Positions 6,977 to 32,700 are shown, counted from the first letter of the stretch. The stretch is 64,000 nt of DNA from a virus (IMGVR_UViG_3300022242_000023:22304-86303), one strand, 5' to 3'. Notes: generated by a model not told the origin, from the letters alone. Program-made: numbers and translations.

Positions 6977-6981
6977 AATTT

Positions 6982-8226: not shown

Positions 8227-8227
8227 T

Positions 8228-10507: not shown

Positions 10508-10508
10508 G

Positions 10509-10922: not shown

Positions 10923-11154
10923 GTTTGCTTCTTTCAGAAGTAACGCAGATGGTAGTATTAGAATATCATTTGATACACAAGAACTTTCAGTAGAAGATAC
11001 TAGGAAATTAATCTCCTTATATAAGGAAAAAGAATGTAGTGTAAATGTGGGCAGTGGTGAAATATTTGATACAGGTGTAGAATTTTTGGCAAGCATTGAA
11101 AATCTTGCACCTGATCAGTTAAAAGCTTTTTTAAAACATGCTGAAGAAGATTAA
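10888..11154 (+). CDS. Hypothetical protein
   Basis: 88-aa ORF; RSNADGSIRISFDT is beta-rich. Confidence 0.55.
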   Translation: MKDINLILKNVKFASFRSNADGSIRISFDTQELSVEDTRKLISLYKEKECSVNVGSGEIFDTGVEFLASIENLAPDQLKAFLKHAEED

Positions 11155-11403
11155 GTGAAAAGTTACACAAAAACTTTTTTAGAATATATGGAGAAAATTC
11201 ATAATATTCTTCCTCATGAACTATTATGTGAAGTATGTCAGCAAAAAGCTGTTGACATACATCACATTTTAGGAAAAGGTAAATATCCAGAATTGACAAA
11301 TGATGTTAATAATTTAATAGCACTATGTAGAAAATGTCATGATAAATATGGACAGAAAAAGCAATATGTGGAATATTTACAATCTATAATTAAAAAAAGA
11401 TGA
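11155..11403 (+). CDS. Small HNH endonuclease (GTG start)
   Basis: CEVC..DIHH..NNLIALCRKCH zinc/HNH motif. Confidence 0.85.
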   Translation: MKSYTKTFLEYMEKIHNILPHELLCEVCQQKAVDIHHILGKGKYPELTNDVNNLIALCRKCHDKYGQKKQYVEYLQSIIKKR

Positions 11404-11579
11404 AAACGATAGTTTCAAGGATACGTGTACATAAAACTTATTCGCATATTAATAGCTCTCATAAGTATTTCATTAATATTAATGTTAATGAACCTATTAT
11501 AGAAGACGAAGGTTTTTTTGATTTATCAATAGTTGAATCAATAGTGCAAAGTTTAATAACTAAATATCATAATATTTAA
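11400..11579 (+). CDS. Microprotein array member 1 (59 aa)
   Basis: MKTIVSRIRVHKTYSHINSSHKYFININVNEPIIEDEGFFDLSIVESIVQSLITKYHNI; ATGA overlap with the HNH stop. Confidence 0.65.
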   Translation: MKTIVSRIRVHKTYSHINSSHKYFININVNEPIIEDEGFFDLSIVESIVQSLITKYHNI

Positions 11580-11585
11580 TAAATA

Positions 11586-11756
11586 ATGAAGAAATATTTG
11601 ATAACTTATAAAAGACGTTATATTAAGTCTTTTGATCTTTATAATTACGAGCTTTATCATGATAAATTATACTCTAGTATTGTAATATTATCTATAGAAC
11701 GTGAAATTTTAGCACTTGAAAGACAGTTTTATGCGATTAAAAATAATAAATCATAG
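11586..11756 (+). CDS. Microprotein array member 2 (56 aa)
   Basis: MKKYLITYKRRYIKSFDLYNYELYHDKLYSSIVILSIEREILALERQFYAIKNNKS. Confidence 0.65.
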   Translation: MKKYLITYKRRYIKSFDLYNYELYHDKLYSSIVILSIEREILALERQFYAIKNNKS

Positions 11757-11883
11757 ACATTACTATTATAATCATACATATATGTATGAACTTCGTAGTT
11801 GGACAGGAAATAAATTAAATAGTTCATTCTCTATCATATGGATAGAAGAATATATTAAATATCTAAAGGAAAATGAAATTTAA
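11731..11883 (+). CDS. Microprotein array member 3 (50 aa)
   Basis: MRLKIINHRHYYYNHTYMYELRSWTGNKLNSSFSIIWIEEYIKYLKENEI. Confidence 0.7.
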   Translation: MRLKIINHRHYYYNHTYMYELRSWTGNKLNSSFSIIWIEEYIKYLKENEI

Positions 11884-12016
11884 AATATGTAATTTTAAAA
11901 TAGCAGATATAATTTATGGAAAGTATAGATATAAATTGCATAAGGATCATGAAGTTGGTCATAATTTACGCCAAATTGAAGGTGTAATCATTATACTAAC
12001 TAACTGTTTTAAATAA
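11873..12016 (+). CDS. Microprotein array member 4 (47 aa)
   Basis: MKFKICNFKIADIIYGKYRYKLHKDHEVGHNLRQIEGVIIILTNCFK. Confidence 0.7.
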   Translation: MKFKICNFKIADIIYGKYRYKLHKDHEVGHNLRQIEGVIIILTNCFK

Positions 12017-12026
12017 AAGTTCAATA

Positions 12027-12182
12027 ATGAAATTAAAAATTACTAATGAAAAAATAGATAAATGTTATTTATATACTGTACATTTACCAAATGGAGAAAC
12101 GTATAGATATGATATATTATTTTTAATAGGTTGTTGGTTTAAATTTTACGCTGATGAAATACACAATAAAATGGGTTGCTAA
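12027..12182 (+). CDS. Microprotein array member 5 (51 aa; lacks the conserved Glu)
   Basis: MKLKITNEKIDKCYLYTVHLPNGETYRYDILFLIGCWFKFYADEIHNKMGC. Confidence 0.65.
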   Translation: MKLKITNEKIDKCYLYTVHLPNGETYRYDILFLIGCWFKFYADEIHNKMGC

Positions 12183-12288
12183 AGGGAATTATTATGTATT
12201 ACTAAAAGGTTCCAGAACAATTTTTGGTGCAGGAAACTTGTTTTATTTAGAACATCTTTTTATACTATTTCATGAGAATCCTTCTTAA
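12154..12288 (+). CDS. Microprotein array member 6 (44 aa)
   Basis: MKYTIKWVAKGNYYVLLKGSRTIFGAGNLFYLEHLFILFHENPS. Confidence 0.7.
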   Translation: MKYTIKWVAKGNYYVLLKGSRTIFGAGNLFYLEHLFILFHENPS

Positions 12289-12433
12289 AAATCATAGATT
12301 AAGTAAATCAATTTATACATATAAAATTGAAAATGTAGATTATAGTAGATTTATTATGTCTATACATTTATGCAATATAGAAAGTCAAATAAAAATTCAT
12401 GAAAACAAAAATTCTAATAAAAAGAACAATTAA
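12272..12433 (+). CDS. Microprotein array member 7 (53 aa)
   Basis: MRILLKNHRLSKSIYTYKIENVDYSRFIMSIHLCNIESQIKIHENKNSNKKNN. Confidence 0.7.
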   Translation: MRILLKNHRLSKSIYTYKIENVDYSRFIMSIHLCNIESQIKIHENKNSNKKNN

Positions 12434-12533
12434 TTCTCGTTACTATATAACTAATAGTAAAAATTTTATGACATATGGTTATTATATTAATCTGAAATCA
12501 GTAGAACACGTTATAGAAAATTATTTTATATGA
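12399..12533 (+). CDS. Microprotein array member 8 (44 aa)
   Basis: MKTKILIKRTINSRYYITNSKNFMTYGYYINLKSVEHVIENYFI. Confidence 0.7.
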   Translation: MKTKILIKRTINSRYYITNSKNFMTYGYYINLKSVEHVIENYFI

Positions 12534-12667
12534 AAATAATAATAAAATGTGATCTTACTAGAAGAATTAAAATCTACCAGCGTTTACGTAAATGCTATCA
12601 TATTAGAAGTTTTTCTTCTTTGCTGCAAATAGAAAAATTTATTAAAAATGAAAATTATCATACATAA
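12530..12667 (+). CDS. Microprotein array member 9 (45 aa)
   Basis: MKIIIKCDLTRRIKIYQRLRKCYHIRSFSSLLQIEKFIKNENYHT; ATGA overlap. Confidence 0.7.
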   Translation: MKIIIKCDLTRRIKIYQRLRKCYHIRSFSSLLQIEKFIKNENYHT

Positions 12668-12782
12668 AACAATGAAAGGTTGTAAAGAAACTATTAGAAT
12701 TAATTATATCTATACTGTTAATAGTATAACACTAGGTAATTACATATTTCTTTCAACTTTAGAAAAAAGACTAAAAGAATAA
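12648..12782 (+). CDS. Microprotein array member 10 (44 aa)
   Basis: MKIIIHKTMKGCKETIRINYIYTVNSITLGNYIFLSTLEKRLKE. Confidence 0.7.
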   Translation: MKIIIHKTMKGCKETIRINYIYTVNSITLGNYIFLSTLEKRLKE

Positions 12783-12801
12783 ATAGGATAAGAAATATTA
12801 A

Positions 12802-12972
12802 ATGAAAATTATAATAAGAAATAAGAAGGATTCTTCTTATACCGTGAGTAAATATAAATACAAATATTATATGTATAATAACGATAAAACTTGGGTTTAT
12901 TGGCTATATCTTATAGAAGGTTATATTAAACATATGAAAAAATATGAAAAGATTAAAATTAAAAATAATTAA
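12802..12972 (+). CDS. Microprotein array member 11 (56 aa)
   Basis: MKIIIRNKKDSSYTVSKYKYKYYMYNNDKTWVYWLYLIEGYIKHMKKYEKIKIKNN. Confidence 0.7.
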   Translation: MKIIIRNKKDSSYTVSKYKYKYYMYNNDKTWVYWLYLIEGYIKHMKKYEKIKIKNN

Positions 12973-13111
12973 AAGTAGTGAAAACGTATTAAAATGGAAT
13001 ATATTTTATATTATACCTCTTTCACACAAACATTATCTGAGAAAAAAATATCGTGTAAGTGGATATTTCATACAAGATATAGAAAAATATATTAAAAATA
13101 GCTTCAATTAA
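12944..13111 (+). CDS. Microprotein array member 12 (55 aa)
   Basis: MKRLKLKIIKSSENVLKWNIFYIIPLSHKHYLRKKYRVSGYFIQDIEKYIKNSFN. Confidence 0.7.
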   Translation: MKRLKLKIIKSSENVLKWNIFYIIPLSHKHYLRKKYRVSGYFIQDIEKYIKNSFN

Positions 13112-13256
13112 AATAGTATCTATAAAGGGCGGAGATTGTAAATATAGAATAGAAGTATATAATAAAAAAGTTTTAAAATATGCAATTAGATTTACTACAT
13201 TTGAACGTGTACATTCCTATGTAACTTATTTTTATGAAAATTATACTAAAAAATGA
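13098..13256 (+). CDS. Microprotein array member 13 (about 52 aa; no ATG/GTG/TTG start, so ATA start or pseudogene)
   Basis: (I)ASIKIVSIKGGDCKYRIEVYNKKVLKYAIRFTTFERVHSYVTYFYENYTKK; fills the slot exactly and ends in an ATGA overlap with member 14. Confidence 0.45.
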   Translation: MASIKIVSIKGGDCKYRIEVYNKKVLKYAIRFTTFERVHSYVTYFYENYTKK

Positions 13257-13411
13257 TAACAATTAAATTAAACAGACAATTGCAGTCAAAATATGTAGTT
13301 ATTTGTACATATCCTGATAACACTGTTCAAAATTTTCCAATGAGAGAGTTGCTGCAAGCAGAATGGTTTATAGAAGAAAGATCTAAAATTTATGGACGAC
13401 TTTTTAGTTGA
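13253..13411 (+). CDS. Microprotein array member 14 (52 aa)
   Basis: MITIKLNRQLQSKYVVICTYPDNTVQNFPMRELLQAEWFIEERSKIYGRLFS. Confidence 0.7.
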   Translation: MITIKLNRQLQSKYVVICTYPDNTVQNFPMRELLQAEWFIEERSKIYGRLFS

Positions 13412-13415
13412 ATTT

Positions 13416-13565
13416 ATGAAAAAGTATATTATAACAAATCATAGAATACATAGTTTAGAGATAATTATATATGACCTATATGTATATATAGATACCACAG
13501 TTACTAATTATGAGGGTTGGAGCAGTTTAAAGCATTTAGAAGATATTATAATCTCGTATAAATAA
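13416..13565 (+). CDS. Microprotein array member 15 (49 aa)
   Basis: MKKYIITNHRIHSLEIIIYDLYVYIDTTVTNYEGWSSLKHLEDIIISYK. Confidence 0.7.
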   Translation: MKKYIITNHRIHSLEIIIYDLYVYIDTTVTNYEGWSSLKHLEDIIISYK

Positions 13566-13566
13566 A

Positions 13567-13779
13567 ATGAAACCTAAAAAATACATATTGAAAAATAAAC
13601 GTACTTCAAATATTGAATTTATACATTTTAATACATATAAACTTAGAATAAAATATCAATATTATGTAGCAAATCTTTTTAACAGTTACATTAGTGGGAT
13701 ACAAGAGGGTATGAGACATTATGACATCAACCATCCTGAAAAAACAATATTATCTGAAATAAATGAAATATATATTTAA
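13567..13779 (+). CDS. Microprotein array member 16 (70 aa; motif degenerate)
   Basis: In ORF track; MKPKKYILKNKR N-terminus matches the family pattern. Confidence 0.65.
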   Translation: MKPKKYILKNKRTSNIEFIHFNTYKLRIKYQYYVANLFNSYISGIQEGMRHYDINHPEKTILSEINEIYI

Positions 13780-13879
13780 AAATCACCGAAACCCTCATTA
13801 TAAGTATGTGTATTCTATAGTAGGTACAACTTCATTGTATATACATATACATAATATAGAATATATAATTAAATGTTAA
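13763..13879 (+). CDS. Microprotein array member 17 (38 aa)
   Basis: MKYIFKNHRNPHYKYVYSIVGTTSLYIHIHNIEYIIKC. Confidence 0.7.
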   Translation: MKYIFKNHRNPHYKYVYSIVGTTSLYIHIHNIEYIIKC

Positions 13880-13927
13880 ACATTATATAAGTGGTCATAT
13901 CAAGACTTAAAAAAAGAAAATTATAGT

Positions 13928-14056
13928 ATGAAATATAAAATTCAATATTATAAAAGATATAAGCTATATTCTTTATATGTTTTATATAAAGTTGCAGATA
14001 ACAGAGTAACTGCAAACATGTTCCATACACTGAAAGAAATTGAACGTCATATATGA
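13928..14056 (+). CDS. Microprotein array member 18 (42 aa)
   Basis: MKYKIQYYKRYKLYSLYVLYKVADNRVTANMFHTLKEIERHI. Confidence 0.7.
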   Translation: MKYKIQYYKRYKLYSLYVLYKVADNRVTANMFHTLKEIERHI

Positions 14057-14202
14057 AATTTAAAATTACAAAATACAAGAATCATCGAAATGATGATAGA
14101 CACATATTATCTTACAATAATATTGATTACATTGAACTATTTATGTTACATAACATAGAAGATCATATAATTGAAATTTCTAAAAATGAAATATATACTT
14201 AA
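14053..14202 (+). CDS. Microprotein array member 19 (49 aa)
   Basis: MKFKITKYKNHRNDDRHILSYNNIDYIELFMLHNIEDHIIEISKNEIYT; ATGA overlap. Confidence 0.7.
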   Translation: MKFKITKYKNHRNDDRHILSYNNIDYIELFMLHNIEDHIIEISKNEIYT

Positions 14203-14359
14203 AAATTGTAAAAATGCTGATGGAGATTGGATGTACTTTATAACAAATTCCTATTTAGATAATGATGAATATATGGAATTTTTAAACTATTACTATCTTG
14301 AAAATCTTGAGTACTGTCTTTTAAAATATTATTATGAAAATAAAACTAGTTATAAATAA
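14186..14359 (+). CDS. Microprotein array member 20 (57 aa)
   Basis: MKYILKNCKNADGDWMYFITNSYLDNDEYMEFLNYYYLENLEYCLLKYYYENKTSYK; ATG at 14186 preferred over the track's TTG at 14171. Confidence 0.7.
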   Translation: MKYILKNCKNADGDWMYFITNSYLDNDEYMEFLNYYYLENLEYCLLKYYYENKTSYK

Positions 14360-14507
14360 TAAACCTTTTCCAGCTCCGCTTTCTTATTTTAATGCATTTT
14401 CACTGAAAGTAAAAGGGAAAATTACAGTGTTAAATTGGGAATTCAATATAAAAGATATTGAAAATCAAATACAAAGAGATACTTATGCGATATACTATAA
14501 AAAATAG
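14334..14507 (+). CDS. Microprotein array member 21 (57 aa)
   Basis: MKIKLVINNKPFPAPLSYFNAFSLKVKGKITVLNWEFNIKDIENQIQRDTYAIYYKK. Confidence 0.7.
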   Translation: MKIKLVINNKPFPAPLSYFNAFSLKVKGKITVLNWEFNIKDIENQIQRDTYAIYYKK

Positions 14508-14628
14508 AAAAGAACTTCGTTATCATAATTCTGATACGCATTTTTACATATATCATGTAACAAATTTTTATTTAAATTCATATGAATATATTTCACTCAG
14601 TACTTTAGAAAATTTATTTATAAGATGA
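14485..14628 (+). CDS. Microprotein array member 22 (47 aa)
   Basis: MRYTIKNRKELRYHNSDTHFYIYHVTNFYLNSYEYISLSTLENLFIR. Confidence 0.7.
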   Translation: MRYTIKNRKELRYHNSDTHFYIYHVTNFYLNSYEYISLSTLENLFIR

Positions 14629-14768
14629 ATTATAAAAAGATATTTATTATAAAAAGACTAACATATCATGATGGGTTTGACACATTAACATTATTGTTTA
14701 AATCAGATGGTGCATATAGATATATAAATTGGAAATTTACTATTAATGAAATTGAAAAACTTATATAA
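14625..14768 (+). CDS. Microprotein array member 23 (47 aa)
   Basis: MNYKKIFIIKRLTYHDGFDTLTLLFKSDGAYRYINWKFTINEIEKLI; ATGA overlap. Confidence 0.7.
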   Translation: MNYKKIFIIKRLTYHDGFDTLTLLFKSDGAYRYINWKFTINEIEKLI

Positions 14769-14769
14769 T

Positions 14770-14946
14770 ATGTTTAAAATAAAAATGATTAATACTAGAG
14801 CAGAAGGATTTCGATGCTCTATTCATTATAATCATGAAGAACTCCTTATTCTTGGTAGCGAGTATACTAATAAAGTAACACACGGCACTAGTCTTATCTT
14901 TGATATTATAGAATATAGATTAGTTAATAGATATAGAATTAATTAA
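14770..14946 (+). CDS. Microprotein array member 24 (58 aa)
   Basis: MFKIKMINTRAEGFRCSIHYNHEELLILGSEYTNKVTHGTSLIFDIIEYRLVNRYRIN; ATG 1 nt after the previous stop preferred over 14746. Confidence 0.65.
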   Translation: MFKIKMINTRAEGFRCSIHYNHEELLILGSEYTNKVTHGTSLIFDIIEYRLVNRYRIN

Positions 14947-14961
14947 TATAAAATAATTAAA

Positions 14962-15096
14962 ATGTATATCATACGTAAAAATACACTAACTAAATTTGGT
15001 TATACACTAATTAAAAAATCAAATAATTTCCATAAAGCATGGTCAGGTATATCTTTAAGATATGCAGAATCTATTATATCACATAATAAATTATGA
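14962..15096 (+). CDS. Microprotein array member 25 (44 aa)
   Basis: MYIIRKNTLTKFGYTLIKKSNNFHKAWSGISLRYAESIISHNKL. Confidence 0.7.
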   Translation: MYIIRKNTLTKFGYTLIKKSNNFHKAWSGISLRYAESIISHNKL

Positions 15097-15100
15097 GAAA

Positions 15101-15250
15101 ATGAAAAATAAAATATTTACTCTAAGAAAACCATTGTTTAATCATCATTTTATAGTTCTTATTTTATACAATCCTACAAGAGTTCTTCAAGGAGATATTG
15201 AAACATTAGAAAAACTTATAGTACATTATTATCATGAACGTAATCCATAA
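15101..15250 (+). CDS. Microprotein array member 26 (49 aa)
   Basis: MKNKIFTLRKPLFNHHFIVLILYNPTRVLQGDIETLEKLIVHYYHERNP; ATG at 15101 preferred over 15062. Confidence 0.7.
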   Translation: MKNKIFTLRKPLFNHHFIVLILYNPTRVLQGDIETLEKLIVHYYHERNP

Positions 15251-15452
15251 AAGTTTATCATCAGATATATATGAATTAAAGTCTACTAGAAATAATATTA
15301 CAATGCCATACAAAACTATTATACCTACTCTTGAAAAAGTTAAAGTTTATGAAATATATATTAATAATGGGAAAGATTTACTTGAAATAGGGTACGAAAT
15401 ATCCTATGTGGAATATCATTTAAAATTACTTCTTAAATCAAATAAAATATGA
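15234..15452 (+). CDS. Microprotein array member 27 (72 aa)
   Basis: In ORF track; C-terminal ISYVEYHL matches the motif; start could be the internal Met (MPYKTII). Confidence 0.65.
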   Translation: MNVIHKSLSSDIYELKSTRNNITMPYKTIIPTLEKVKVYEIYINNGKDLLEIGYEISYVEYHLKLLLKSNKI

Positions 15453-15616
15453 AATGCATTTTTAAAAATGTAAAAGGGAAAGGTTACTATAGTTATTTTA
15501 TTACTAATTTATATACTATTTTATATCCCAGAGACGTACTTGTTGATCCATCTAGTGGAACTTATATGCAGATATCTTCTTTAGAAGAATTAGTAGATTT
15601 TCACAAACAGATTTAA
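15449..15616 (+). CDS. Microprotein array member 28 (55 aa)
   Basis: MKCIFKNVKGKGYYSYFITNLYTILYPRDVLVDPSSGTYMQISSLEELVDFHKQI; ATGA overlap. Confidence 0.7.
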   Translation: MKCIFKNVKGKGYYSYFITNLYTILYPRDVLVDPSSGTYMQISSLEELVDFHKQI

Positions 15617-15631
15617 AGAATGGTTTAAAGA

Positions 15632-15790
15632 ATGGAAAATAATAAAATCAAAATAATCAAGCATTCTTCTGGATATACCCTCTTTCCAAAACCTTTAAGA
15701 TTTGATATATATGAAAATTTTTGTGTAATGTTAACAGGAACTTCTGATCTTAACATCAAAGATGTAGAAAGATTTATAAAAACTATGTAA
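15632..15790 (+). CDS. Microprotein array member 29 (52 aa)
   Basis: MENNKIKIIKHSSGYTLFPKPLRFDIYENFCVMLTGTSDLNIKDVERFIKTM. Confidence 0.7.
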   Translation: MENNKIKIIKHSSGYTLFPKPLRFDIYENFCVMLTGTSDLNIKDVERFIKTM

Positions 15791-15802
15791 AATAATTATA
15801 AT

Positions 15803-16114
15803 ATGAAAATAGAAAAATACATTGAAATTTTAGAAAAATTAAAATCTAAAATTATACCTATGACAGGGTATAAAGAATTAAATTACAACTCTAAATGTTT
15901 AGCAATAGAGAAGTTTAATTATCTGGTTACAGATAAAACATATGATAAAATATGTAAAAAATTACATAAAGAATTCGTAAAAGAATTAGAACTAGATGAG
16001 CAAAGAAGTTCTGAAGAATATGTAACTATTCAGAAACTAGTATCTCAAAAGATAAAAGTTGGCACTCAAGAAGAAGTTAGTAAAAACTTAGAAATAAATA
16101 AAATTATAACTTAA
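15803..16114 (+). CDS. Hypothetical helical protein, last gene of the + strand block
   Basis: 103-aa ORF; does not fit the array pattern. Confidence 0.6.
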   Translation: MKIEKYIEILEKLKSKIIPMTGYKELNYNSKCLAIEKFNYLVTDKTYDKICKKLHKEFVKELELDEQRSSEEYVTIQKLVSQKIKVGTQEEVSKNLEINKIIT

Positions 16115-20794: not shown

Positions 20795-23700
20795 TTATGC
20801 TTCTCTCGTAGGCCCACATGCTGTTTCATCTTCATCAAGTGCAGGAGGACCTTTAATTTCTAAATCATCAGGGAATTCTTGTGTTTTTTCAACAGGAGAA
20901 AGCTGCTCATTTAACTTTCTTAAGATTTCATTTTTAATTTTTATAATACCAGGAGAAGATAAAGTAAGTATTTCTTTACCAGCATCTTTAGCAGATATAT
21001 CTATAATTCTATTGTCTGTTAATACATAAACTTTCAAATCTCCATGTTCAACTTTTCTTAAAGGATTATATCCATGTTTAACTTGAAACATATTTATAAG
21101 TTTCTCATCTACTACCTCTACACCTTTTTCATCCCTTATAGTACCATTAGAGTATAATCCTAACTTTTGACCATTTACAATAATTTCTTTTTCAAGAGTT
21201 TCAACATTATCAGGTAAAATTTCTCTAATTTCATATTCTCTAGGTAATATAACATTGTCTGGAATTATGTTTTTAAGTTTTTCAAATAAACTTTTAATTT
21301 CTTCTATTGAATATCCAGCTAATGAACTTCCAAGTTTAGTTACTAAAAATTTCTTATTTGGATTAGCTCTAGCAAATAATATCATATTTTGTAACTCTTT
21401 ACCAATTTCTGATAAACTAGATGATTTTTCAACATCCCAATACTTTTTAGTTATTACTGCGTAAGATTGACCTTGCAACCCTTTACTTTGTCCTTGTATT
21501 GCTCCAAATTTCTGTTTAGCTAGTAAAGCAGCACCTGCGCCATGAGTAGGTTTTCCTCCTTTTGAACTACCTTCATTACTACCAAATACAAATATTTCAT
21601 TTGGTTTAAGAAATGTTATATTATCAGGGGTATATTCTCTGATTGTATTTACATCTTCTTCTAATTTAGGAACTTCATTTTCTGAAATTTCAATTTCTTC
21701 AGCTTTAATCTTATCATCTTGTTTGTATGTATTATTAACAGCTTTGGCAACACTATGTTCTGATTTAGTCTTTTCAGAATTGAGTTTATGATATTTCATC
21801 TTAAAATCTGGGTAGAAACTTTGTTCATCAGCTTTAAGATTAAAGTTCTTAAATGCTTTAGGATTACCATTTAATCTTTGTATTTCATATACTCCAGCAG
21901 GATTCTTCTTATACAATACTGGTAAAGTAGCATTTTCATAATATACTGTAGAATGTAAGTATTCAGGTAATGAATCACCTTCATTACTATATATGTCTAA
22001 GAGATTTTCGTTTATCGTAAAACTAATAGGTATTACACTCTTGCTTACTTCACCATTAAATTCATTAGTAAAACTTTCACTATATTCTTCTAAAGCTTCT
22101 ATATGATTTTGTATATCTACGTTTCTAGTATAGAAAGGATTTGTATATAAGATTCTTTCAGAAAGTTCTTTTTCTGACATGCTGTTCATTATATTTTTCA
22201 AATATTTAACAGGATTCTTAAATACATCTCTTACTATACTACCTTCTTCTGTAGAAGTATAAAAACTTACAGGTAACCACTGACTAAAAGAATCAATTGT
22301 AAATCTAAAACTAGAAGTAATTAATGAATATAAACCAAGATCTTTAGCTAAAGAAGATATTTCTTCATTAGGATCTTTCATCATCTTTTCCCATAAACTA
22401 GTTAAGTCTTCACCTTCTTCTCTACCAGGAGAAACAGCTCTACGTATTAATACTTCTTTTGTTACTTGCTCATACTTTAAAGCATTTAGAAAAGGTAAAT
22501 ATTCTTCATATAATTCTTTGAAATCAGATCTCTTCTTTAGATCAGCAAATCTTTTAGAGACATCTCTTATAAAGTCTTTACCTAATACTATAGAAGGACT
22601 CATTTGGAATATCATATTATATATATCCAAATCTAACATTTTCCTATCTGATTTTTTAAACTCATCTAGTTCTAAGAACTCTGCTAAATTTGATCTTATT
22701 TGTTCAAACTCTGGAGATAGGAAACTGAAATGTTCTTTCAAATTATTAGCCTGATCCATAGCTAACTGTATATACTTATCATTGAGTTTAAGTACAGATG
22801 CATTTTCTTTTGAAAATTCATAATTAGCTGTCTCAGGATTGAATATAATATTTGGAACAATTAGATCTAAACCTGAAATTACAGGATCCTCTTTTTCAAA
22901 GTACTTTTTAAGTAAAGAACGTATCTTATCAATTTTATTTAAGTTATCATACAGTGTAGGTCCAAATGCTGCATCAGTATCAAACTTAGTAGCAATCATT
23001 GCAGAAGTTAACTCGTCAGATATTTTAAAAAGCTCTTTAATTTTAACTAAAGCTACTATATCTGTAGTATTAGAATTATATTGAGTTAAACCTTTTTCAA
23101 AAACACTTCTTCCAGGATTTTTATCAAATTCTTGTTTGTAAAACTCTGTAAGAGGGAGATTTCTTTCTTTGGCAAAACTCTCTATTAACTTAGGAATAGT
23201 GGTAGTATAATCTAAGTTAGTATTTATATAAATAGTTAAATCTTTTACTATCTTCTGATTTAAGATTAACATTATATCTCCAAAAGGTATTCCTAACCTA
23301 AGAGCTGCCAATACCATAGAAACATTATTCCTGTCTATATTAAGTTTATCCATCAAAGGATTCTTAATATGTTCAGTAGATGCAAATAATATACTAGATA
23401 GAGATTCAGAAATAAATTTATTATTTCTATTTCTCATATTACTTAGACTAGAATATGTATGTTGTAAGAAAGTAAAAGGTTTACTTAATTTTAATCCTTC
23501 AATATTCTGTACTACTGCATGATGCTTATTATGAGAAGCAGCAATTCCAATTATCTCTCCACCCACAATAGCTTTGTTAGCTGCATATATTTGGTATATA
23601 GGATCAGATATATCCATAGGAACACTAGTATCTTCTAGAACTACTCCTTTATCTTCAAATGCTTTTATTTGATCTCTTAACATATCAGCATTACCACCTT

Positions 23701-26700
23701 TATGAAATTCTTCAGCAAAGTTTCTTGTCTGAGCAATCTTCTCATATATAGACATTCTAAGATTATGTCTAGCCATAGGAGTCTCCATTCCAGGAGGAAC
23801 CATTTCTATATTACTTATAGTAATATTATCTTTAATTCTTCTAAAACGTTCTGGCTCTCTTAAGAATTCTATAGCTTCTGCTTCTACTTCACTATTAGGT
23901 ATACCTCTGTTTAAAACTTTATTGAATAAAGCTTTTGCAGAACTATTATCATATTCTACAGTAAGAATTTCACCTGTATTTTCATTAAATAATTTCTTAT
24001 CAGCAAAAAAACTATTTAATTCATCAACTACATAACTGAAATCTCCTTTAGTTAATTCAAAAGCTTTGAATAATACATATAGTTTATCAATATCAAAGTC
24101 TAGCCCAGTAATTGTAGTAGCTTCTTTAGGTAATATAATTAAAGAATCTGAATAACTTGGTATTAGATATTTTATTTTAATAGGGTATATTGAATAATCC
24201 CCTTCAGTAGGAATTCTATAACCAAAAGCTTTTCGTAATTCATCTGTAGCTTCTTTACCTAATGCTTGTTCTATTCTTGTAAAATCTAAAAGACCTCTAT
24301 CATCAGCTAATAAAGCTAAAGCATAATTATAAGCTGGAACAGCAGCATCAATATAATCAATTACTGTTTCACCTTTTTCATTTGTTTTATAATGTATTTC
24401 AAGATTATCTTGGTAACTTTCTAAATCTGTAAATCCAACAGAAGAAGCATTTACAAAAGGAGCACCAGGAACTTTGTTATTTAAAGCTTTCTTAGTCTTA
24501 GAGTTGATTAGTTTAAGATTATCATCTATAGTCAAAGGAAAATTTAAAGGAATATTCAAATCTCCATCTTGGTGCTTGGATAAACTTTCTATTACAGACA
24601 TAGGTTTACCTTGCTCACTAGCTTGAGCTAATAATGTATTTCTTAAACTATCTGTATCTTTTAATGCCTCATTTAAACTAACTCTATTTTCATCTATATC
24701 TCTAGTAAAAGTTTCATCTAATACAGATCTAACTTGTTCTGGAGTCATTTTACCATAACCTTCTACCTCTACTTCTTCTTCAAGATTAGCTGGCATGATT
24801 ACTTTAAACTGAGATCCTTCTTCTATTTTACCTTGAAAGTGTTTTTCACTAGGAACAATGTTTTGTCTACCATACCCTTCCATAGAAGTTTCCACTACAG
24901 ATGCTAATATAGTATCTATGTCCATATTATCTATTGATTCTCTTTTGAGAACTTTAGAATTATCTCTATCAACTTTATTAACACTTTGAAAACTTATTCC
25001 ATCAATACCGTGTTCATGAAATAAATAAAGAATTTTAGCTAAGAAAGGTCTTCTATATTTTGAAAAATCAGTTTTGTCAGAAGGTTTTTCAACTTTAAAA
25101 TCTTTAGTTAACCATGCCATAGCTGGAGTAAGAGTATACTCTGAGTTCTTCTCTTGGAAAGGTCTTAATAATTCTCCAGACTCTTCTTGGTTAAAATAGT
25201 AAGGTTTTTGAACAGGGAAAACAAATTCTGCAGATTCACCATTCTTAATTCTTTCAGCAATTTCTATTTCACGATCAGAAATTTCATCAAATCCTCTCAT
25301 AACATCTACTGTAAAATCAATAGAGTTTATGGTTTGAGCATCTGTAATATTATGACCTTTATTATAGTCTCCAGCTAATTCAGGAAAGTCTTCTTTGAGA
25401 GTATCTAATTCATTACTTGGAATTAATATATCATCTACAGTTATCCTTCTCTTTTTTCTAGGAGTTCCATCTTTATATGTAAAGAGCGCATGTTGCTTAG
25501 GTGAATGAGCTTCTTTAAACCTCTTAAGAAAGTCTACTAATAAACTATTTTTATAATCAAAAGGTGCATCATCAGACTTATATGTACCATAAAAAGCAGG
25601 ATCTCCAGCTAATAAAGGTATTAACTGAGTATTATAATAATACTGATTAAAGAATTGAGTCTTTATATCACCTTCTAAGTCATCTTTAAAGCTAGAACTA
25701 CTATCATCTATTATATCATCAGTTTTAACAAGTTTTGAACCTTCTTTAACTAATACTCCATCCTTTACTAATTTTTCAGTATATGCTTCAAACTTTTTAT
25801 TTAAAACACTAGATATAAAACCTTCTAATCTTTCAGTGAGTTCTGGTCCTAATTCTACTCCGCCATTTGCTTTATACAATTCTATAATAGTATCCTTTTT
25901 AGAATTTAAAAAAGGTAATAGTATAAAATGTTTACCGTTTATGTTAAAGTTTCTGTAATTGGTTTTGTTATTTTCAAGATATATAATCCTATTTAATTCA
26001 GCATGCGCAGTTCTAACTAATTTATTTACTACGTCATCCAAGGATACTGTTGGAGCATTCATATACCCAGAAGATGTAGCATCAGAAAACGGAGGTAAAG
26101 CAATTACTATCTCCTTACCATTACTATTATACATTCTTTCTAATGCATAATTTAACTGCTGAGTAATTAGGTCATAATTAAAATACTTGTTATAAGTAAT
26201 TCCATTATATGTACCTTTTATACCTATACCATTATCATAATGAGGTTCAAATATCTCTATAGATTTGCTCAATAAAGCATCATATATAGGTAAGTCTTTA
26301 TGTAAGATCTTATTCTTAATTGTAGCTAAAGCAGATTTAGGACTTTCTTTAAACTTGTTAAAGAGAGTTGTCAAATGATTATTCATCTGATGAATATATT
26401 CAGCTTCACCTTGAACAGTTGTAATATTCATTACATATGATTGCTGATCATGTTTAGCTAATAAATCAGATACTTCTTTTATCTGTTGCTTTGTAAGTTT
26501 GCTTTCAATGACACTGAAAGGATTTTTACCTTCTTTAATTGCATTAAATACTGGTAGAGCATTAATGCTCAAGCTCTTGTTAGAGAATTCATTACTTTCA
26601 AGCTCTACAGCAATTTCTTGATCAATGTTATAACCTAAGAAAGTATATATACGTTCTATGTCTACAGCATTAAGAAGATTATTATTAGTAATACTATTCT

Positions 26701-29700
26701 CTAAGATCTTATAAATTTCTAAAAATTCTAATGAATCAAGTTCTTTATTTAAGAACATTATTTCAGCATGTCTCTTGAACATTTTCCATAAACCTTTCTT
26801 AGAAGAATTATGTACACGTATTCCTCTTCTACTTCTCTCTGTATTTATAAATACAATATTTCTTTGAGAACCAGTTATTAAGTATAAATTTTTAAACCAT
26901 TTACTCGCTGAAAGTTTATATACATATTCAGGATCATATTTCTTACTATTCTTATCTAATTTTTCTACATTAATATCTTCTCCTGATTGTAGAATCTTTT
27001 TACCTACTAATTCATTCTTAATTTTCTCAACTAATGTATCTGCATAATCCTTTGTCTTAGCTAAGTCTATTAACTTTAACATGGTTTGTTCAGGAGATGA
27101 TCCTGAAAGTTTATTCAATAATCTATTAAATAGTACATCAAAGTTATGATATATCTTAGCTCCTGTTTTAGGATCTATTTTATCAACATAATGACCTAAT
27201 TCTCTTTCTCTTACAGGAATTAAAGACATTAATTCTCTAATTTTACCTTTAACATTTGTCTTAGGATTCACATTAGTATCTCTAATTAATGTAGTTTTCT
27301 CATCAAATTCATTTGCATCTTGAGTAATTTGAACTCCAGCACTATATAAGTTATTCATATATTGTGCTATATACAACTGAAGTTTAAGAAGATCTTCTTT
27401 ATTTTCTAATATATTCTTTAATTCACCGTAGTTTTCTAATTGTTCAGGACTGTTATGTTTCTGGAACCAAAGATCAATATAAGTAGGTAATTCATTAAAA
27501 AACTCTTTATTAAACTGAGATTTATTACCAGATTCTATAATAGCATTGTATGTATAGTATTGAGCTATATTAGTTTTTTTACCATCTTTATTAATAGTAT
27601 TTGATTTAAAAGTTCTAACTGCCAGATGTACTAAGTTCTGTGCTATAAATTTAGCATGTTCACGTATCTGTTTTATATTTGAAACTTTGAACTTTCCTTG
27701 ATGTAATAATCTAGCAAAGTTTTCAGAATAGTTTTTATTGAAAGCATTAGTTCTCCCCCCAAATATACTTCTACCAAATATATTTCTATCTAATTGATAA
27801 AATAAATCTTCTACAGATATCTTAGTAGTAAAGTAAGGTTTTAATTGTTGATAACTATCGTATATAAAATTATATAATGAATCTAAAAATTTAGCAATCT
27901 TAGGATATTTCTTTTTAAAATTCTCAGAAACAAATCCATCAGTAGCTTTATAAGTCTCAAATAATTCTGCTAACTTTTCTTCTAATCTAATTAAAGGATT
28001 TTGTTTTTTGTAATATTCTTCTTCTGATTTTAAACGTATAGCACTTTGATCTCTATTATTATCAATAGTTATTTCATTCCAAGTATTACCATGCTCATCA
28101 GTAACCTGTTTTACATTATCTTTACCATAAGTTTTATTAAGAATATTACTTACTGTATTTTCATAAAAATTATAAATAGGTTTTAATGCACCAAATCCTT
28201 CCTTATCAATTCTTTCAAGTTCTTGTTTAAGTTGGTTTATTTCAACTTTTGAATCTTCTTGTTTAGTTTTAATATATTGATTGTAACTTTTTACAACTAA
28301 TTCTTCATTAGCTTTTTGCTGATTAAAACTTTGATTACCTGTTTGATATTGAATTAACCATTCTCCACTTCTCCCATCTAATTCTACTGTTTCTCCTTTA
28401 TTATCTCTGAATTGAAAATACCTTAAATAGGTAGGTTGTTTTATTTCAGAAGAATTAGTAATAGTATTGAAATCTTTTTCAAGTTCTTTAATCCTATCTT
28501 CTTTTTGTTTCTTAAACTCTTCTAAAGTAGTATGCCCTTCAACTTTACTAGCTGTATTACCAGTAGGAAACAAAACTTTTTCATATCCTTTTTTAGCACT
28601 ATCTTGTATGATAGATTTAACAAAGAATGTTACCCAATTATTATCTTTGTTTAATAGTTGTAGAAATTGATTAGATTTAATATTTTTTCTTTTTTCTATA
28701 ATTTCTTCTATTGTATTACCATCTACATTTTGGTATTCTTCAGAATACTCATTTATTAAATTATCTTTATCTCTACCTTTCTGAAATAAATCAGATTGTA
28801 CTTCAAGTATTCTACGAGTTTTAGTATTAGTTCCTTTTTGTATATAACCTTTAACCCCATATTGATTATCATATATAGCATATATATCAGTATCATTTAA
28901 ATCTGCTCTTTCATGTAAAGAACCGTCACTATCTAAATATTTCCAAATATTATTCTCTTTAAACCATTTTCCATTTTCATCATTAAATGAATTTGGGTAA
29001 TCCTTAGATGTTATATATTCTTCATCACTTCTAAACCAACCAATACCTTTATCAGTACTAAATTGAGCATGACCTTTAATAGAAGGAGTAATAGCTCCTT
29101 TTCTTACAGTTTTAGTATTAGATTTAATAAAGCTTTTAAACCCTTCTATATCTTGTTTAGAACCTAATATATGAATTTGTTCTGGTTCAAATACTACGAA
29201 TTGAGCTACTCTTGAAGGAGTTATAATACCATCAAATCCTTTTTCTTGTAATTTTTTTGAAAAAGGAATTAAACGAGAATCTTCTTCTAATAATTCTTTA
29301 TCGCTAAATCCTAATCTTTTACCTTCATAATATCTTTCAGACCATTCTTGTTCTTGTGGTGTGAGTTTATATGTAGTTCTTGGATTACTTGGGTTTTTAA
29401 TATCTAAAATAGCAGTATATAATTCTCCATATCTTAAAGCTTCTTCTTTAATATTTGTAAAATAAAACCCATCACCTATTTCAAAATGAACTATTTGTTT
29501 AGAAGAACCTATATAATTTTTATTAAAACTATTATTTATAGGTATAGGACTATTTATTGAAACATTATTTTCAAATAATGTTATTCCATTATCATTTAAA
29601 ATAAGTCCTATTCCTGCACCTATTATCTTGTTTTTACCTTCATATATTTGTACTCCTATATGCCAATTATTATTAGATACTTTTTCAGCCTTTAATATTT

Positions 29701-32700
29701 TAATATTATAAGAATTTACATCTAAAATTTTTCCAAATTTATCTGGATAATTTTTAATAAATAATTCAATTATTTTATTTTGATACTCTTTATTGTACTG
29801 TAATTGATTAAATACTCTCGAACTACCATGATAAACAATATCTTTTACTTTACTATCAGGAAATATAGTATCAAGATATTGAGAGTACAATTCTTGAGCT
29901 TGTTGTTTTTGTTGAGGAGTTATTTGTTGTTGTTTTTGTTCAAGGGTTATTTGATTATTTAGCTCTGCTAATTCTGCATCGTATTTAGCGTTGATTTCAT
30001 TCTTTACATTCTCAATATTTTTATTTATAACATCTCTTGTACTAGATAACCCATTTTCGGTAGGTGTTAAATCCCTATTAATAAAATCTATGTGCGAGCC
30101 AGATATTCCAGCCTTTGGTATAGCATTATCATTTCTAATATCACCTAATTGAGTATCTAATTCTTCTGAAAGAAGTTTAAGTATTTTGCTATCATAATAA
30201 TTATTGATTTCATTACCAGATAACTTATTCATCCATCCATCTTGTGCTATACCAAATATAGGATACCACTTACCAGATGTAACATCAGCTTTACCTCCAT
30301 GCCCAGTAGATAGATAAAACGGAACATTCATTCCATTTACATTAAGAACTACCACTTTTCTACCAGCTAAATCAATAATGGGGGATTTCCCTCTAACTTT
30401 TCTTTTATTACCATCAGCAGTTTGGTCATAAATAGTAGTTTCGTATTCAATTTCTTGACGATTCTTAACTATATTTTTTACATCTTCTTGTATCCTTCTT
30501 TCTATATCAGATTTTTGTTGTTGTTTTTGTTCATCAGAAATATTTCCAGTAAACCCTAAAGCTTCATATACACTATTAGCCAATTCAGGATTAGATTCAA
30601 ATAGTTCAGAAACTCCTTGTTTTACAGGAACCCCTTGAGGCTTTTCCTGTATCTCTACTCCAGGTATAGCTATTTCATTTTCTGTATAATTAGTACCTCC
30701 TGGAACTGTTAGATTAGAGTAGTATTGTGTTGGTTTATTTAAAGTTTTATTGTATTCATTCATTGCTTCTGAATACTTTTTTTCTCCTATTTCTTTTCCA
30801 TTTTTAGTAAAAGATAATATACCAAAATCATTAAATTCATATTTATCATTATCTAGTATAAAATCTATATAATCTGTACTAAATTTACTATGATATTTTT
30901 GTTCTTTAGCAGTATTAATCTCAACAGTATAACTATAATTAGAAGCTAATTCTAAAGCATATTGTAAAGGTTCATCATAAATAGCAAATTGTTTTTGTAC
31001 AAAATCTTGTTCTATTTGTTCTATTAATTCTTTTTGTTCTTTAGGTATTGCAAGTTCAGTTAATATCTTATCTAAACTCCAATTGTTTTTTCTTCCTTTA
31101 TTAAATATTTGTTTAGCTTTTTCAGATTGTAATATATCTACTGCTTTAAGTACATAATCAACTTGATCTTCAACTTTAAATCTATTACTATCAATAGGTT
31201 TATTTAAATCATTTTCAAACTCTTCTTTAGTTATACCTAATTCTTTACCATATTTCTTATAAGCCTCATTAAGAACTTGTTTTCTTTGTTTATCATTTAA
31301 GAACAGATTAAAAGCAACGTGAAAAGCTTCATGCTTTCCTACATTTAATCCAGCATCTGAAGATAGATATACTACAGCATTATAAAATGCCCCCCATACT
31401 TTACCATCTCCTACATTGTATATATTAGATATAATTCTTAAAGCTTCATCTGAAACTTTAACTCCTAAATTTTCAAATCTATCTTTGATATATTTTTCAG
31501 CAGCTCCTTCTTTAAATTCTTCTACTGTGGTTGTATCATCAGTATATTTAGCAAAAAAATTACCTTCTGGGACTTCTGTATTATTTTCTAATTCAGCTCT
31601 CATTCGAGCTTTTTTTTCTTCTGAAACTTCTTGTTTTGACACTTGTGTTTCATTAGATCTTACTTTAAATTCAATTACTGTAACATCATCTTGAGATTTA
31701 TTTTCTTTTCTTAGACTTTCAGATTTATTTATTATTTCATCAAAACTATCCCCTTTATTCGATATATTAGGCACCTCATCCGTATATAATAATACATTAT
31801 CACCAGCTTTTACATCTACTTCTTGTATTATTTCATCTATTGATTTATTTTTTGCTAAAACAGTACTGTTTGTTTTAATATTAAAATTTACATTAGTTTT
31901 AATTCCTTGTTTTATCTTTTCACCATTTATTTCAACAAAAGAATCTCCAATGCTAAATATTTTATTTAATTTTGGTATGTATAAAATTAGAGTACCAATT
32001 TGACCTGTTTGAGATCCATTTGTGAAATCTGGGGATTTTATTACCAAAGAATTTAAGATATCATATAAAGATTGCTTATCTTTTATTTCACCTTTTCTTT
32101 TTGCAATTTCTTCAACTAATTGATGGGATAATGATCCCTCAGCAGAATCTGACATTCCATCTGACATAACAATTATATCATTAGAAACAAAGAAAGCATC
32201 TTCAATATAGTTATCTGCGTAACCTTTCCTATTTTTATTTTGTGTGTAAACTTTTACGCCATTAATAGTTTGTACCTTGCCAAGGTTTTTATTTATTTTA
32301 GTGCTTTGAATTACATCTTTTGTTTTTATTTTTTCACCTGTTTTGATATCTTTTAATGTTTCTATTTCTTCTTTACTACTAGTTCTTTCTACATCTATAT
32401 ATACTTCACCTTGCTCATAATATCCTTCATCTATAGTTTTTAGATCTGTAGATACTAAATCAGGATGTTCTAATAAGAAATCTTTAGTATTATGACTAGG
32501 AACATGTACCCTTACTTCCCCTAATTTTGCAACAACCTGATCAACAGATAATCCATATTCTATTTTATATTCACCTTTCTTTCCTTTAGTAGAAATAGCA
32601 AATCCAGGTAATAATTTACTAGCATTTTCATAACCTTCTTTAGTAAGATAATCAATACCAGAAGGTGTATAATAAGTAATAACTGGACCCAATCCTCCAT

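Follow-up and report, generated by a model that had tools for sequence, protein, structure and literature searches.

Tandem paralogues whose copy number changes by recombination, and which are linked to conflict with the host, make up the MGF families of ASFV and the gene "accordions" of poxviruses. In T4-type hyperplastic regions, small early ORFans are shuffled via promoter-stem-loop cassettes, and Acr loci usually comprise a few unrelated genes, for acidic proteins, often accompanied by an HTH regulator (aca). Two published descriptions concern phage loci with many small or repeated genes. In the jumbo phages G and 121Q, more than 30 similar genes stand side by side, an arrangement attributed to tandem duplication (Hua et al. 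2017, PMC5646251). In crAss-like phages, the sections consulted of Yutin et al. 2021 (PMC7886860) describe blocks of short lineage-specific genes suspected to target host defence. Here, we describe a locus that shares traits with all of these: a contiguous array of 29 small genes that appear to belong to one family.

Genomic context of the array

The window, i.e. the whole stretch of 64,000 nucleotides that was analysed, was assigned by sequence to an uncultured crAss-like phage (Crassvirales) with a genome of about 120 kb. Positions 42197-47134 match the Pfam profile crAss_MUZ (muzzle protein) at 8e-23, above the curated cut-off. The block of giant proteins is oriented opposite to the replication block. 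The latter lies upstream of the array on the same strand and encodes DnaB, a primase, UDG, and an ATPase, followed by an HNH gene and then by the array, which is contiguous and co-directional with this rightward module and occupies its distal end. We found no aca-like HTH regulator next to the array: the HNH gene encodes an endonuclease, and neither flanking ORF (88 and 103 aa) matches a Pfam profile. The main features are:

11155..11403, plus strand: HNH endonuclease gene, the last conserved gene before the array
11400..15790, plus strand: the whole array, 29 genes of one divergent microprotein family
15803..16114, plus strand: 103-aa ORF outside the family, at the end of the rightward block; 4-nt overlap with the stop of the convergent 1557-aa gene
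20795..37111, minus strand: 5438-aa protein carrying DFDID, a signature motif of crAss-type virion RNA polymerases

In phi14:2, a crAss-like model, the rightward replicative module belongs in its entirety to the early class and is transcribed by the injected virion RNA polymerase, and early transcription was found by experiment to be rifampicin-resistant (10.1101/2020.03.07.982082). By analogy, we infer that the 5438-aa protein is the transcriptase of the rightward early block. The position of the array, at the far end of a block that is early in phi14:2, makes its early expression probable, an extrapolation from a distant relative.

Organization and coding capacity

Positions 11400-15790 of the window (4.4 kb) are tiled by 29 ORFs of 38-72 aa, all on the plus strand, and only five of them reach 60 aa. 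Counted from the internal ATGs that yield the common N-terminus, neighbouring genes overlap at 18 of the 28 junctions, and gaps reach at most 48 nt. This recount agrees in every figure with the first-pass annotation, including its remark that a 60-aa cutoff leaves only 5 members visible. ATG or TTG starts open 28 of the 29 ORFs. The exception, member 13 (13107-13256), lacks ATG, GTG, and TTG in the window, where ATA stands at 13098; a SNP (13100 A>G) turns this codon into ATG, and the frame opens with ATG 13098 in 11 contigs of sister strains. In the list below, "motif" is the C-terminal pattern [LIF]xx[ILVA]Exx[ILVF], found in 26 of the 29 members, and labels such as L005 designate sister-strain contigs.

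11400..11579, plus strand: member 1, 59 aa, motif present; 4-nt overlap between its start and the stop of the HNH gene; T-run frameshift in L005
11586..11756, plus strand: member 2, 56 aa, motif present
11731..11883, plus strand: member 3, 50 aa from an internal ATG, motif present; longest ORF from TTG 11716
11873..12016, plus strand: member 4, 47 aa, motif present
12027..12182, plus strand: member 5, 51 aa, without the strict motif but with a good HMM score
12154..12288, plus strand: member 6, 44 aa, motif present; two strains have an in-frame deletion of 3 nt
12272..12433, plus strand: member 7, 53 aa, motif present; L005 has lost its start codon
12399..12533, plus strand: member 8, 44 aa, motif present
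12530..12667, plus strand: member 9, 45 aa, motif present
12648..12782, plus strand: member 10, 44 aa, motif present
12802..12972, plus strand: member 11, 56 aa, motif present; L008-L010 have a nonsense mutation in codon 2 and a 1-nt insertion, L005/L006 an in-frame duplication of 21 nt
12944..13111, plus strand: member 12, 55 aa, motif present; L006 has a nonsense mutation in codon 18, L005 a frameshift in an A run
13107..13256, plus strand: member 13, about 49 aa, relaxed motif; without canonical start in the window
13253..13411, plus strand: member 14, 52 aa, motif present
13416..13565, plus strand: member 15, 49 aa from an internal ATG, motif present; longest ORF from 13392; 6-nt in-frame insertion in L005
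13567..13779, plus strand: member 16, 70 aa, without the strict motif
13763..13879, plus strand: member 17, 38 aa, motif present; 7 contigs have an in-frame insertion of 6 nt
13928..14056, plus strand: member 18, 42 aa, motif present; directly preceded by the largest gap
14053..14202, plus strand: member 19, 49 aa, motif present
14186..14359, plus strand: member 20, 57 aa from an internal ATG, motif present; longest ORF from TTG 14171
14334..14507, plus strand: member 21, 57 aa, motif present
14485..14628, plus strand: member 22, 47 aa from an internal ATG, motif present; longest ORF from TTG 14458; modelled with AF2
14625..14768, plus strand: member 23, 47 aa, motif present
14770..14946, plus strand: member 24, 58 aa from an internal ATG, motif present; longest ORF from 14746
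14962..15096, plus strand: member 25, 44 aa, motif present; 10 clustered SNPs (divergent allele) in two strains
15101..15250, plus strand: member 26, 49 aa from an internal ATG, motif present; longest ORF from 15062; truncating A-run frameshift in L005/L007
15234..15452, plus strand: member 27, 72 aa, motif present; located at a deletion junction
15449..15616, plus strand: member 28, 55 aa, motif present; extra diverged tandem copy in L019
15632..15790, plus strand: member 29, 52 aa, motif present

Random sequence of the array's composition is estimated to give about 2.7 ORFs of this size per strand in 4.4 kb, and the observed density is thus around ten times that expected by chance, on one strand only. 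The third codon positions have the same composition as those of the phage's long genes, and independent pipelines also call the array genes. The region has the lowest GC content of the window (21-22%). We detected no periodic DNA repeat in the array, only short two-copy matches at gene starts and at the motif, no terminator-like hairpins within it, and no enrichment in promoter-like sites. The anchor residues are encoded by many different codons, and the Glu codon lies 11 to 69 nt from the next start, showing that the motif is not a nucleotide signal.

Homology and fold of the members

The first-pass annotation had reported the C-terminal motif and proposed to check it with an HMM and with shuffled sequences. 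The enrichment is clear: shuffles that preserve composition give the motif in 1.7 ± 1.2 of the 29 members (maximum of 7 in 2000), and it occurs in 3.5% of the ORFs from Markov sequences of array composition and in 12 of the 88 other ORFs of 35-75 aa in the window. The Glu is conserved at 90% or more, both in the 29 sequences and in a set of 48. The Tyr-rich central strand described in the same annotation was also recovered, as an aromatic-x-hydrophobic-x-hydrophobic pattern present in 24 of the 29 members (14.2 ± 2.7 in shuffles). Outside these anchors, the comparisons point to a homology that is faint but real. Among the 406 pairs of members, 29 exceed the 99th percentile of shuffled pairs (4.1 expected), and in a leave-one-out HMM analysis 10 of the 29 members beat all 200 shuffles (mean z around 3), with about 9 members individually unrecognisable. 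The mean column identity is 19%, the paralogues have diverged to around 20% identity, and pairwise comparison revealed no gradient of similarity between neighbours among the old copies.

The AF2 model of member 22 has strands at residues 4-12 and 18-26 and a helix at 38-46 (pLDDT 70), so that the predicted fold of the members is an N-terminal beta-hairpin followed by a C-terminal amphipathic helix. This model and the periodicity checks fit the single beta-beta-(beta)-alpha scaffold proposed earlier, for which structure prediction had been named as a check. The proteins are basic (median pI of 9.5), although several members are neutral or acidic, and have twice the Tyr content of the replication genes (10.3% vs 5.1%). 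No membrane segments were predicted.

Searches for relatives outside the lineage were negative. The family has no relatives in Pfam or PHROGs, no match in a profile search of the PDB, and none in INPHARED by tblastn; an exhaustive profile search of 1.84 billion protein representatives returned only the family itself or near-identical strain variants. All structural matches are below any meaningful threshold: the weak best rows include MBD and dsRBD modules (Z of 2.5-3.5), and AcrIF5 and T7 Gp1.2 are present with Z of only 2.5-2.6. The family has neither homology nor a fold match to a known anti-defence or takeover protein in these searches. At the corresponding position, the nearest relative sampled (ATPase 56% identical) carries small ORFs that are not detectably of this family.

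Copy number and polymorphism across strains

We compared the array with sixteen sister-strain contigs, from strains that are 97-99.9% identical. All 16 retain it, in lengths of 4.4, 5.9, or 6.2 kb and with 29 to around 40 genes. The array of L019, with 38 HMM matches, includes a young tandem duplicate of member 28 (62% aa identity). Two stretches of the window align with both sides of blocks found in other strains:

11558..11592, plus strand: 35-nt stretch, recombination footprint, aligning on both sides of a 3-gene insertion of about 480 nt in L005
15293..15367, plus strand: 75-nt stretch, footprint of deletion or insertion between direct repeats, aligning on both sides of a block of about 1.2 kb

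The latter block holds 8 genes and is present in L005, L019, and L021, but absent from this window. Member 27 appears to be chimeric, since its N-terminus is unlike that of the intact orthologue in L005/L019. Short direct repeats are thus the sites where blocks of the array come and go, and the family grew by tandem duplication. Recombination at direct repeats, together with frameshifts in homopolymers, remodels the array and leads to the range of copy numbers among strains.

The array SNPs among the sister-strain contigs comprise 74 nonsynonymous and 8 synonymous changes. This is an excess of the former relative to the neutral expectation matched for mutation spectrum (65.3, p = 0.008) and differs strongly from the flanking genes, which have 28 and 65 respectively (21/32 upstream, 7/33 in the downstream gene; Fisher test, p = 1e-16). 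Amino-acid changes accumulate in the array at or above the neutral rate. However, in the 23 members never seen broken (44 nonsynonymous, 6 synonymous) the excess is not significant (p = 0.08), and relaxed constraint explains these short-term data as well as diversifying selection. By hand count, anchor residues carry 3 of the 74 nonsynonymous SNPs, where around 5 are expected, and are not significantly spared, with low power.

Six homopolymer frameshifts, each in an A or T run, affect members 1, 11, 12, 16 (twice), and 26, and one of them is common to 8 independent contigs. Two nonsense mutations and start losses also segregate in the array, while none of these three types of change was found in the roughly 6 kb (5000-11400) of adjacent upstream genes. 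Member 16 has an A-run frameshift in 8 sister contigs, 3 of which have a second one, and is therefore likely a pseudogene in most strains. From these comparisons, the array genes are gained, lost, and mutated far faster than their neighbours. The copy-number changes, the nonsynonymous excess, and the broken members indicate that individual members are dispensable or diversifying, while the open frames and the anchors (MKxxI at the start, the aromatic strand, and the L..IE..I helix) persist. The first-pass annotation had called the family "amplified and hyper-diversified" and suggested dN/dS and copy-number comparisons in related genomes; the young duplicate, the length variants, and the excess of amino-acid-changing polymorphism are in line with that view.

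Functional interpretation

We favour, with roughly even confidence, an operon-like array of genuine, translated genes of one lineage-specific family of soluble, basic, and Tyr-rich proteins of around 50 residues. The family grew by tandem duplication and was reshaped by direct-repeat recombination and homopolymer frameshifts. The anchors would form the folding core, leaving specificity to the variable residues. Probably expressed early via the virion RNA polymerase, as in phi14:2, such proteins would probably provide a redundant repertoire of fast turnover for host manipulation or counter-defence, in which single members are non-essential. An anti-defence or host-takeover role is plausible given the context. 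It is very improbable that the region acts instead as DNA or RNA (spacer, origin, or structured transcript) with incidental ORFs. Its low GC content would suit such a role, but the strand-specific excess of ORFs, the protein-level motif written in varied codons, the coding-like third positions, and the lack of a periodic repeat speak against it.

The array could also consist mostly of functionless duplicates, by-products of slippage and unequal recombination in very AT-rich DNA that decay neutrally, are tolerated because they are cheap, and have no role even if translated. The rate of nonsynonymous change, the frameshifts, nonsense mutations, and start losses in at least seven members, the dispensability of 3- and 8-gene blocks between strains, and the absence of the family from the nearest relatives sampled all fit this account. 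Yet, paralogues at around 20% identity are still open when an estimated 9% of random codons of array composition are stops, 26 of the 29 members keep the Glu and hydrophobic anchors, as do the additional members in other strains, and no sister contig has lost the array, making the account unlikely. Slightly less likely still, the members may bind host or phage DNA or RNA, acting as small regulators or as nucleoid or RNA modifiers, and not as defence inhibitors. Their net positive charge, doubled Tyr content, and weak resemblance to MBD and dsRBD modules would suit this role. However, that resemblance is below threshold, no known DNA- or RNA-binding family was found by sequence (Pfam, PHROGs, PDB profiles), and the members that are neutral or acidic fit poorly. 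We are more doubtful of the adaptor or decoy model of the first-pass annotation, where the invariant Glu helix would bind a single common partner while the variable face probes many targets. A polar residue so conserved, on an amphipathic helix, suggests more than core packing, but the a-d-a spacing of the L/I/I positions means that they could equally be a hydrophobic core packed on the hairpin, and an internal salt bridge between the Glu and the conserved N-terminal Lys/Arg is just as conceivable.

Comparison with known systems

The array resembles the ASFV MGF families and the poxvirus accordions in having tandem paralogues whose copy number varies between strains via recombination. It differs from them in lacking homology, in the realms of virus and host, and in the far smaller size of its proteins. 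Like T4 hyperplastic regions, it is a dense set of small genes between conserved modules that varies among close relatives, but it has overlapping paralogues instead of cassettes with repeated intergenic DNA or hairpins. The on/off frameshifts at homopolymer tracts recall phase-variable contingency loci. Small, fast-evolving genes in accessory regions, found only in close relatives, are also typical of anti-CRISPR and anti-defence clusters (in part PMC7886860), whereas 29-40 paralogues encoding basic proteins are unlike Acr loci. As in phages G and 121Q, about 30 or more same-strand paralogues seem to have arisen by tandem duplication; the copies there are reported to be very similar (PMC5646251), whereas here they are nearly unrecognisable, encode microproteins, and reside in a non-jumbo genome. 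The contiguous short genes without homologues outside the lineage, in a crAss-like genome, match the blocks of PMC7886860, but the sections consulted do not describe these as one paralogous family with a shared scaffold, nor report strain-level changes of copy number or an excess of amino-acid-changing polymorphism. Considering these two precedents, the earlier statement that no described system resembles the locus was too strong. What appears to be new, relative to PMC5646251 and to the consulted sections of PMC7886860, is a single-family microprotein array with such dynamics.

Gene content of the array

The array and its immediate neighbours are arranged as follows:

11155-11403, HNH endonuclease gene, upstream of the array
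11400-15790, + strand, array of 29 tiled microprotein genes, numbered 1 to 29 in order
15803-16114, ORF of 103 aa, downstream of the array and followed by a convergent gene for a protein of 1557 aa

The first-pass annotation had described 29 ORFs of 38-72 aa tiling this region, and our recount agrees, including the five ORFs of at least 60 aa. The 18 overlaps among the 28 junctions and the largest gap of 48 nt were reproduced using internal ATGs as starts, which yield a shared N-terminus and are also the choice made by gene callers on the contigs of sister strains. An ATG or TTG is available in 28 of the ORFs, and in the window there is no canonical start for member 13 (13107-13256). The ATG of this member is supplied in 11 sister contigs by an A>G SNP at 13100 (window 13098-13102), which also alters residue 53 of the overlapping member 12, a case in which the evolution of overlapping frames is coupled. 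In random sequence of the array's composition, around 2.7 ORFs in this size range would be expected on each strand of a 4.4-kb stretch, whereas 29 were observed. Standard ORF cut-offs of 60 aa hide around 5% of the coding capacity of this genome.

The C-terminal motif, [LIF]xx[ILVA]Exx[ILVF], was found in 26 of the 29 members, the number originally reported, compared with 1.7 +/- 1.2 members in composition-preserving shuffles (maximum 7, 2000 shuffles) and 3.5% of the ORFs in Markov sequence with an equal composition. It is present in 12 of the 88 remaining small ORFs of the window. At least 90% of the sequences retain the Glu of the motif, and the central alternating pattern of aromatic residues occurs in 24 of 29 members, against 14.2 +/- 2.7 in shuffles. 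The hydrophobic positions of the motif are encoded by many different codons and the Glu codon lies anywhere between 11 and 69 nt from the following start, so the motif is neither a ribosome-binding nor a promoter signal. The base composition at third positions of the annotated frames is almost exactly that of the long genes of the phage. We found no periodic DNA repeat in the array, where the only matches are short, in two copies, and confined to gene starts and the motif.

Beyond the anchors, i.e. the MKxxI start, the aromatic strand, and the L..IE..I helix, similarity between members is faint (mean column identity of 19%). Nevertheless, 29 of the 406 pairs are above the 99th percentile of shuffled pairs, where 4.1 were expected. 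In leave-one-out HMM searches the mean z was around 3, with 10 members outscoring all 200 shuffles and around nine being individually unrecognisable. There is no gradient of similarity between neighbours across the array (p = 0.57), the sign expected of recent stepwise duplication, so most duplications are old.

Predicted fold and protein properties

We ran AlphaFold2 on member 22 with a family alignment of 48 sequences. In the model, two long strands (4-12 and 18-26) and a short bridge accompany a helix at 38-46 (pLDDT 70, pTM 0.43), which matches the beta-beta-(beta)-alpha arrangement proposed from the sequence. That this fold is shared across members is based on this one model and on the periodicity of the hydrophobic moment, which supports a helical motif region for 21 of 26 members and an N-terminal strand for 20 of 29. 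The proteins are basic (median pI of 9.5), their Tyr and His content is twice that of the phage's replication proteins, and no membrane segments were found in them.

The interpretation given in the first-pass annotation stands in part: the common scaffold is backed by the model and the periodicity statistics, and the diversification by the SNPs between strains (see below). It had also proposed that the Glu-helix could dock on one shared partner. The helix anchors have an a-d-a spacing, as a folding core would, and the conserved Glu may make an internal salt bridge or have a functional role. Structural comparisons gave no relative of the fold: Foldseek found no match with E < 1 in PDB and BFVD, the best Z in a wide comparison with VIA was 3.5, below a meaningful match, the ESM Atlas provided no usable lead by features or by shape, and a profile search of PDB with the family gave E >= 0.3 throughout.

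Phage and genomic setting

The source IMG/VR record has 86.3 kb, of which the window takes up bases 22304-86303, and is rated 70% complete. Judging from sequence features, the phage belongs to Crassvirales, since it has a protein matching crAss_MUZ, a DFDID signature, and opposed blocks of replication and giant-protein genes. The two proteins in question are:

20795-37111, - strand, single ORF of 5438 aa with the DFDID signature of crAss-type virion RNA polymerases
42197-47134, protein of 1645 aa matching the Pfam profile crAss_MUZ (8e-23, better than the curated cut-off)

The 5438-aa protein far exceeds the 2180 residues of the phi14:2 enzyme, and searches of both its halves revealed no Pfam domain at E < 0.01. 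The replication block (DnaB, primase, UDG, ATPase, HNH) runs rightward and is convergent with the leftward block of giant proteins. The array continues the replication block directly, with an overlap of 4 nt at its start, while the GC content drops from 26-33% overall to 21-22%. Scanning the array for sigma-70 promoters and terminators showed no promoter enrichment and no hairpins. In phi14:2, the entire rightward block is of the early class and is transcribed by the injected virion RNA polymerase (10.1101/2020.03.07.982082). Considering this equivalent block, the contiguity of the array with the replication genes, and the lack of hairpins, the array is likely to be expressed early.

Turnover of the array among strains

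The array is covered by 16 contigs that come from independent samples and are 97-99.9% identical. The interval between the HNH gene and the 103-aa ORF differs in length among these sister strains. It has 4.4 kb in the window and in three sister contigs (L017, L018, L024), 5.86 kb in the sister contig L019, and 6.24 kb in another, L005. In L005, three extra genes follow member 1 and eight precede member 27, and the motif is present in nearly all the extra genes. Two stretches of the window, one of 35 nt and one of 75 nt, each align to both sides of the extra blocks, which is what recombination between direct repeats would produce. There are 38 matches to the family HMM in L019, which carries a young tandem duplicate of member 28 (62% identity in amino acids, 80% in nucleotides).

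To compare substitutions we counted each unique SNP once, against a neutral expectation with the same mutation spectrum. Of the SNPs in the array, 74 are nonsynonymous and 8 synonymous, an excess over the 65.3 nonsynonymous expected (p = 0.008). In contrast, the flanking genes show a deficit of nonsynonymous changes, both in the upstream replication genes (21 nonsynonymous, 32 synonymous, p = 1e-7) and in the downstream 1557-aa gene (7 and 33, p = 1e-12), resulting in an odds ratio of 21 between array and flanks (p = 1e-16). Among the 23 members never found broken, the counts are 44 and 6 (p = 0.08). The array also has six frameshifts, all in runs of A or T (members 1, 11, 12, 26, and two sites in member 16), one of these homopolymer frameshifts being common to eight contigs. 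Two nonsense mutations segregate, start codons were lost in members 7 and 13, and there are six in-frame indels. No frameshift, nonsense mutation, start loss, or in-frame indel was found in the adjacent upstream genes (around 6 kb, 5000-11400).

The SNPs of the neighbouring genes are unevenly distributed. Those of the replication block number 37 in 2 kb (window 3000-5000) and 12 in the following 6.4 kb, and strain L023 has a small, strongly diverged patch with clustered indels at 4258-4298, which together suggest mosaic recombination between strains. The SNPs of the 1557-aa gene (- strand) fall in two patches, 16500-17500 and 19500-20000, and are mostly synonymous (7/40 nonsynonymous). This protein is strongly constrained, in contrast to the adjoining array.

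Relatives of the family

Searches with the family gave no match in Pfam or PHROGs. When 1.84 billion representatives were searched exhaustively with the profile, ten matches were returned, each being either a protein of the window itself or a variant of one, differing by one to three substitutions, and a word-based search with the family profile in 5.8e9 proteins returned strain variants only. Neither blastn nor tblastn found a match among INPHARED phages. Searches for related loci with DnaB, an alignment of an 88-aa ORF, and the 103-aa ORF gave nothing, or just an unrelated phage of higher GC (L016) where the array is absent.

A second array was found in the same genome, around 18 kb upstream of the window (L003:2024-3887), with nine same-strand ORFs of 57-87 aa. 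These have a similar basic N-terminus and a helix containing E, plus a C-terminal extension, and they supply the top non-member matches of the HMM. At an hhalign E of 0.005, the second array appears weakly related to the main family.

The closest sampled relative, L013 (ATPase 56% identical), has 12 small ORFs in a run of low GC content downstream of its HNH gene (11356-14105). Comparison with the family by hhalign revealed no relation (E 0.72), and the run may be an independent expansion or one that diverged beyond recognition. Many of its ORFs have another hydrophobic helix pattern at their end, with K-N after it. The family HMM found nothing real in the relatives L011-L013 and L027-L029, and relatives with the 1557-aa protein at 45-48% identity have a different local gene order and no family matches. 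The 103-aa ORF resembles a 104-aa ORF of L013 (11948-12262) in its first 36 residues alone (E 3e-7); the latter lies midway along the run of small ORFs, whereas the former closes the rightward block. In two relatives (L027:14428-14781, L029:12825-13184), a gene of 117-119 aa overlaps tail-to-tail with the end of a gene of 1476-1511 aa. By eye and unaligned, it is like the first gene of the replication block of this phage (genome 16928-17311, L004) and unlike the 103-aa ORF. If this likeness holds, it would imply that the order of modules was rearranged between lineages.

Evolution of the array and comparison with known systems

With around 1 in 11 random codons being a stop, as estimated from the composition of the array, selection has in the long term kept frames of around 50 codons open together with a handful of anchor residues. 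In the short term, amino acids of individual members are replaced at the neutral rate or faster, and members are frequently disrupted, copied, or lost. The array is a case of birth-and-death evolution in a redundant repertoire. Such turnover, with an excess of amino-acid change, is what one would expect if the genes were in conflict with a host that varies. It would also fit a relaxation of constraint on genes that are each dispensable. A further reading, which we regard as improbable, is a contingency repertoire of the phage, in which diversifying selection, on/off switching at homopolymers, and reshuffling between short direct repeats would ensure that the population always holds variants for the variable, often phase-variable, defences or the surface and physiological states of a Bacteroidota-type host. 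If true, the array would be to a phage what contingency loci are to bacteria and multigene families are to large eukaryotic viruses.

Crassvirales rank among the most abundant phages of the gut and, to our knowledge, the majority of their short genes have no explanation. The block of short genes described here is a single family of microproteins that has expanded on a minimal conserved scaffold. Natural variation between strains gives direct evidence of its dynamics: gain and loss between direct repeats, homopolymer knock-outs, and 90% of SNPs changing amino acids beside strongly constrained neighbours. The small, defined set of proteins of 40-60 residues, with a clear Glu and hydrophobic core, is open to testing.

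Arrays of this kind are already known, since Yutin et al. 2021 (PMC7886860) describe blocks of short genes lacking outside homologues in many crAss-like genomes, with host defence as the suspected target, and in phages G and 121Q more than 30 similar genes are arranged in tandem (Hua et al. 2017, PMC5646251). What is new in this array is that it consists of a single hyper-divergent microprotein family, the size of its expansion, and its turnover at the level of strains together with an excess of amino-acid change.
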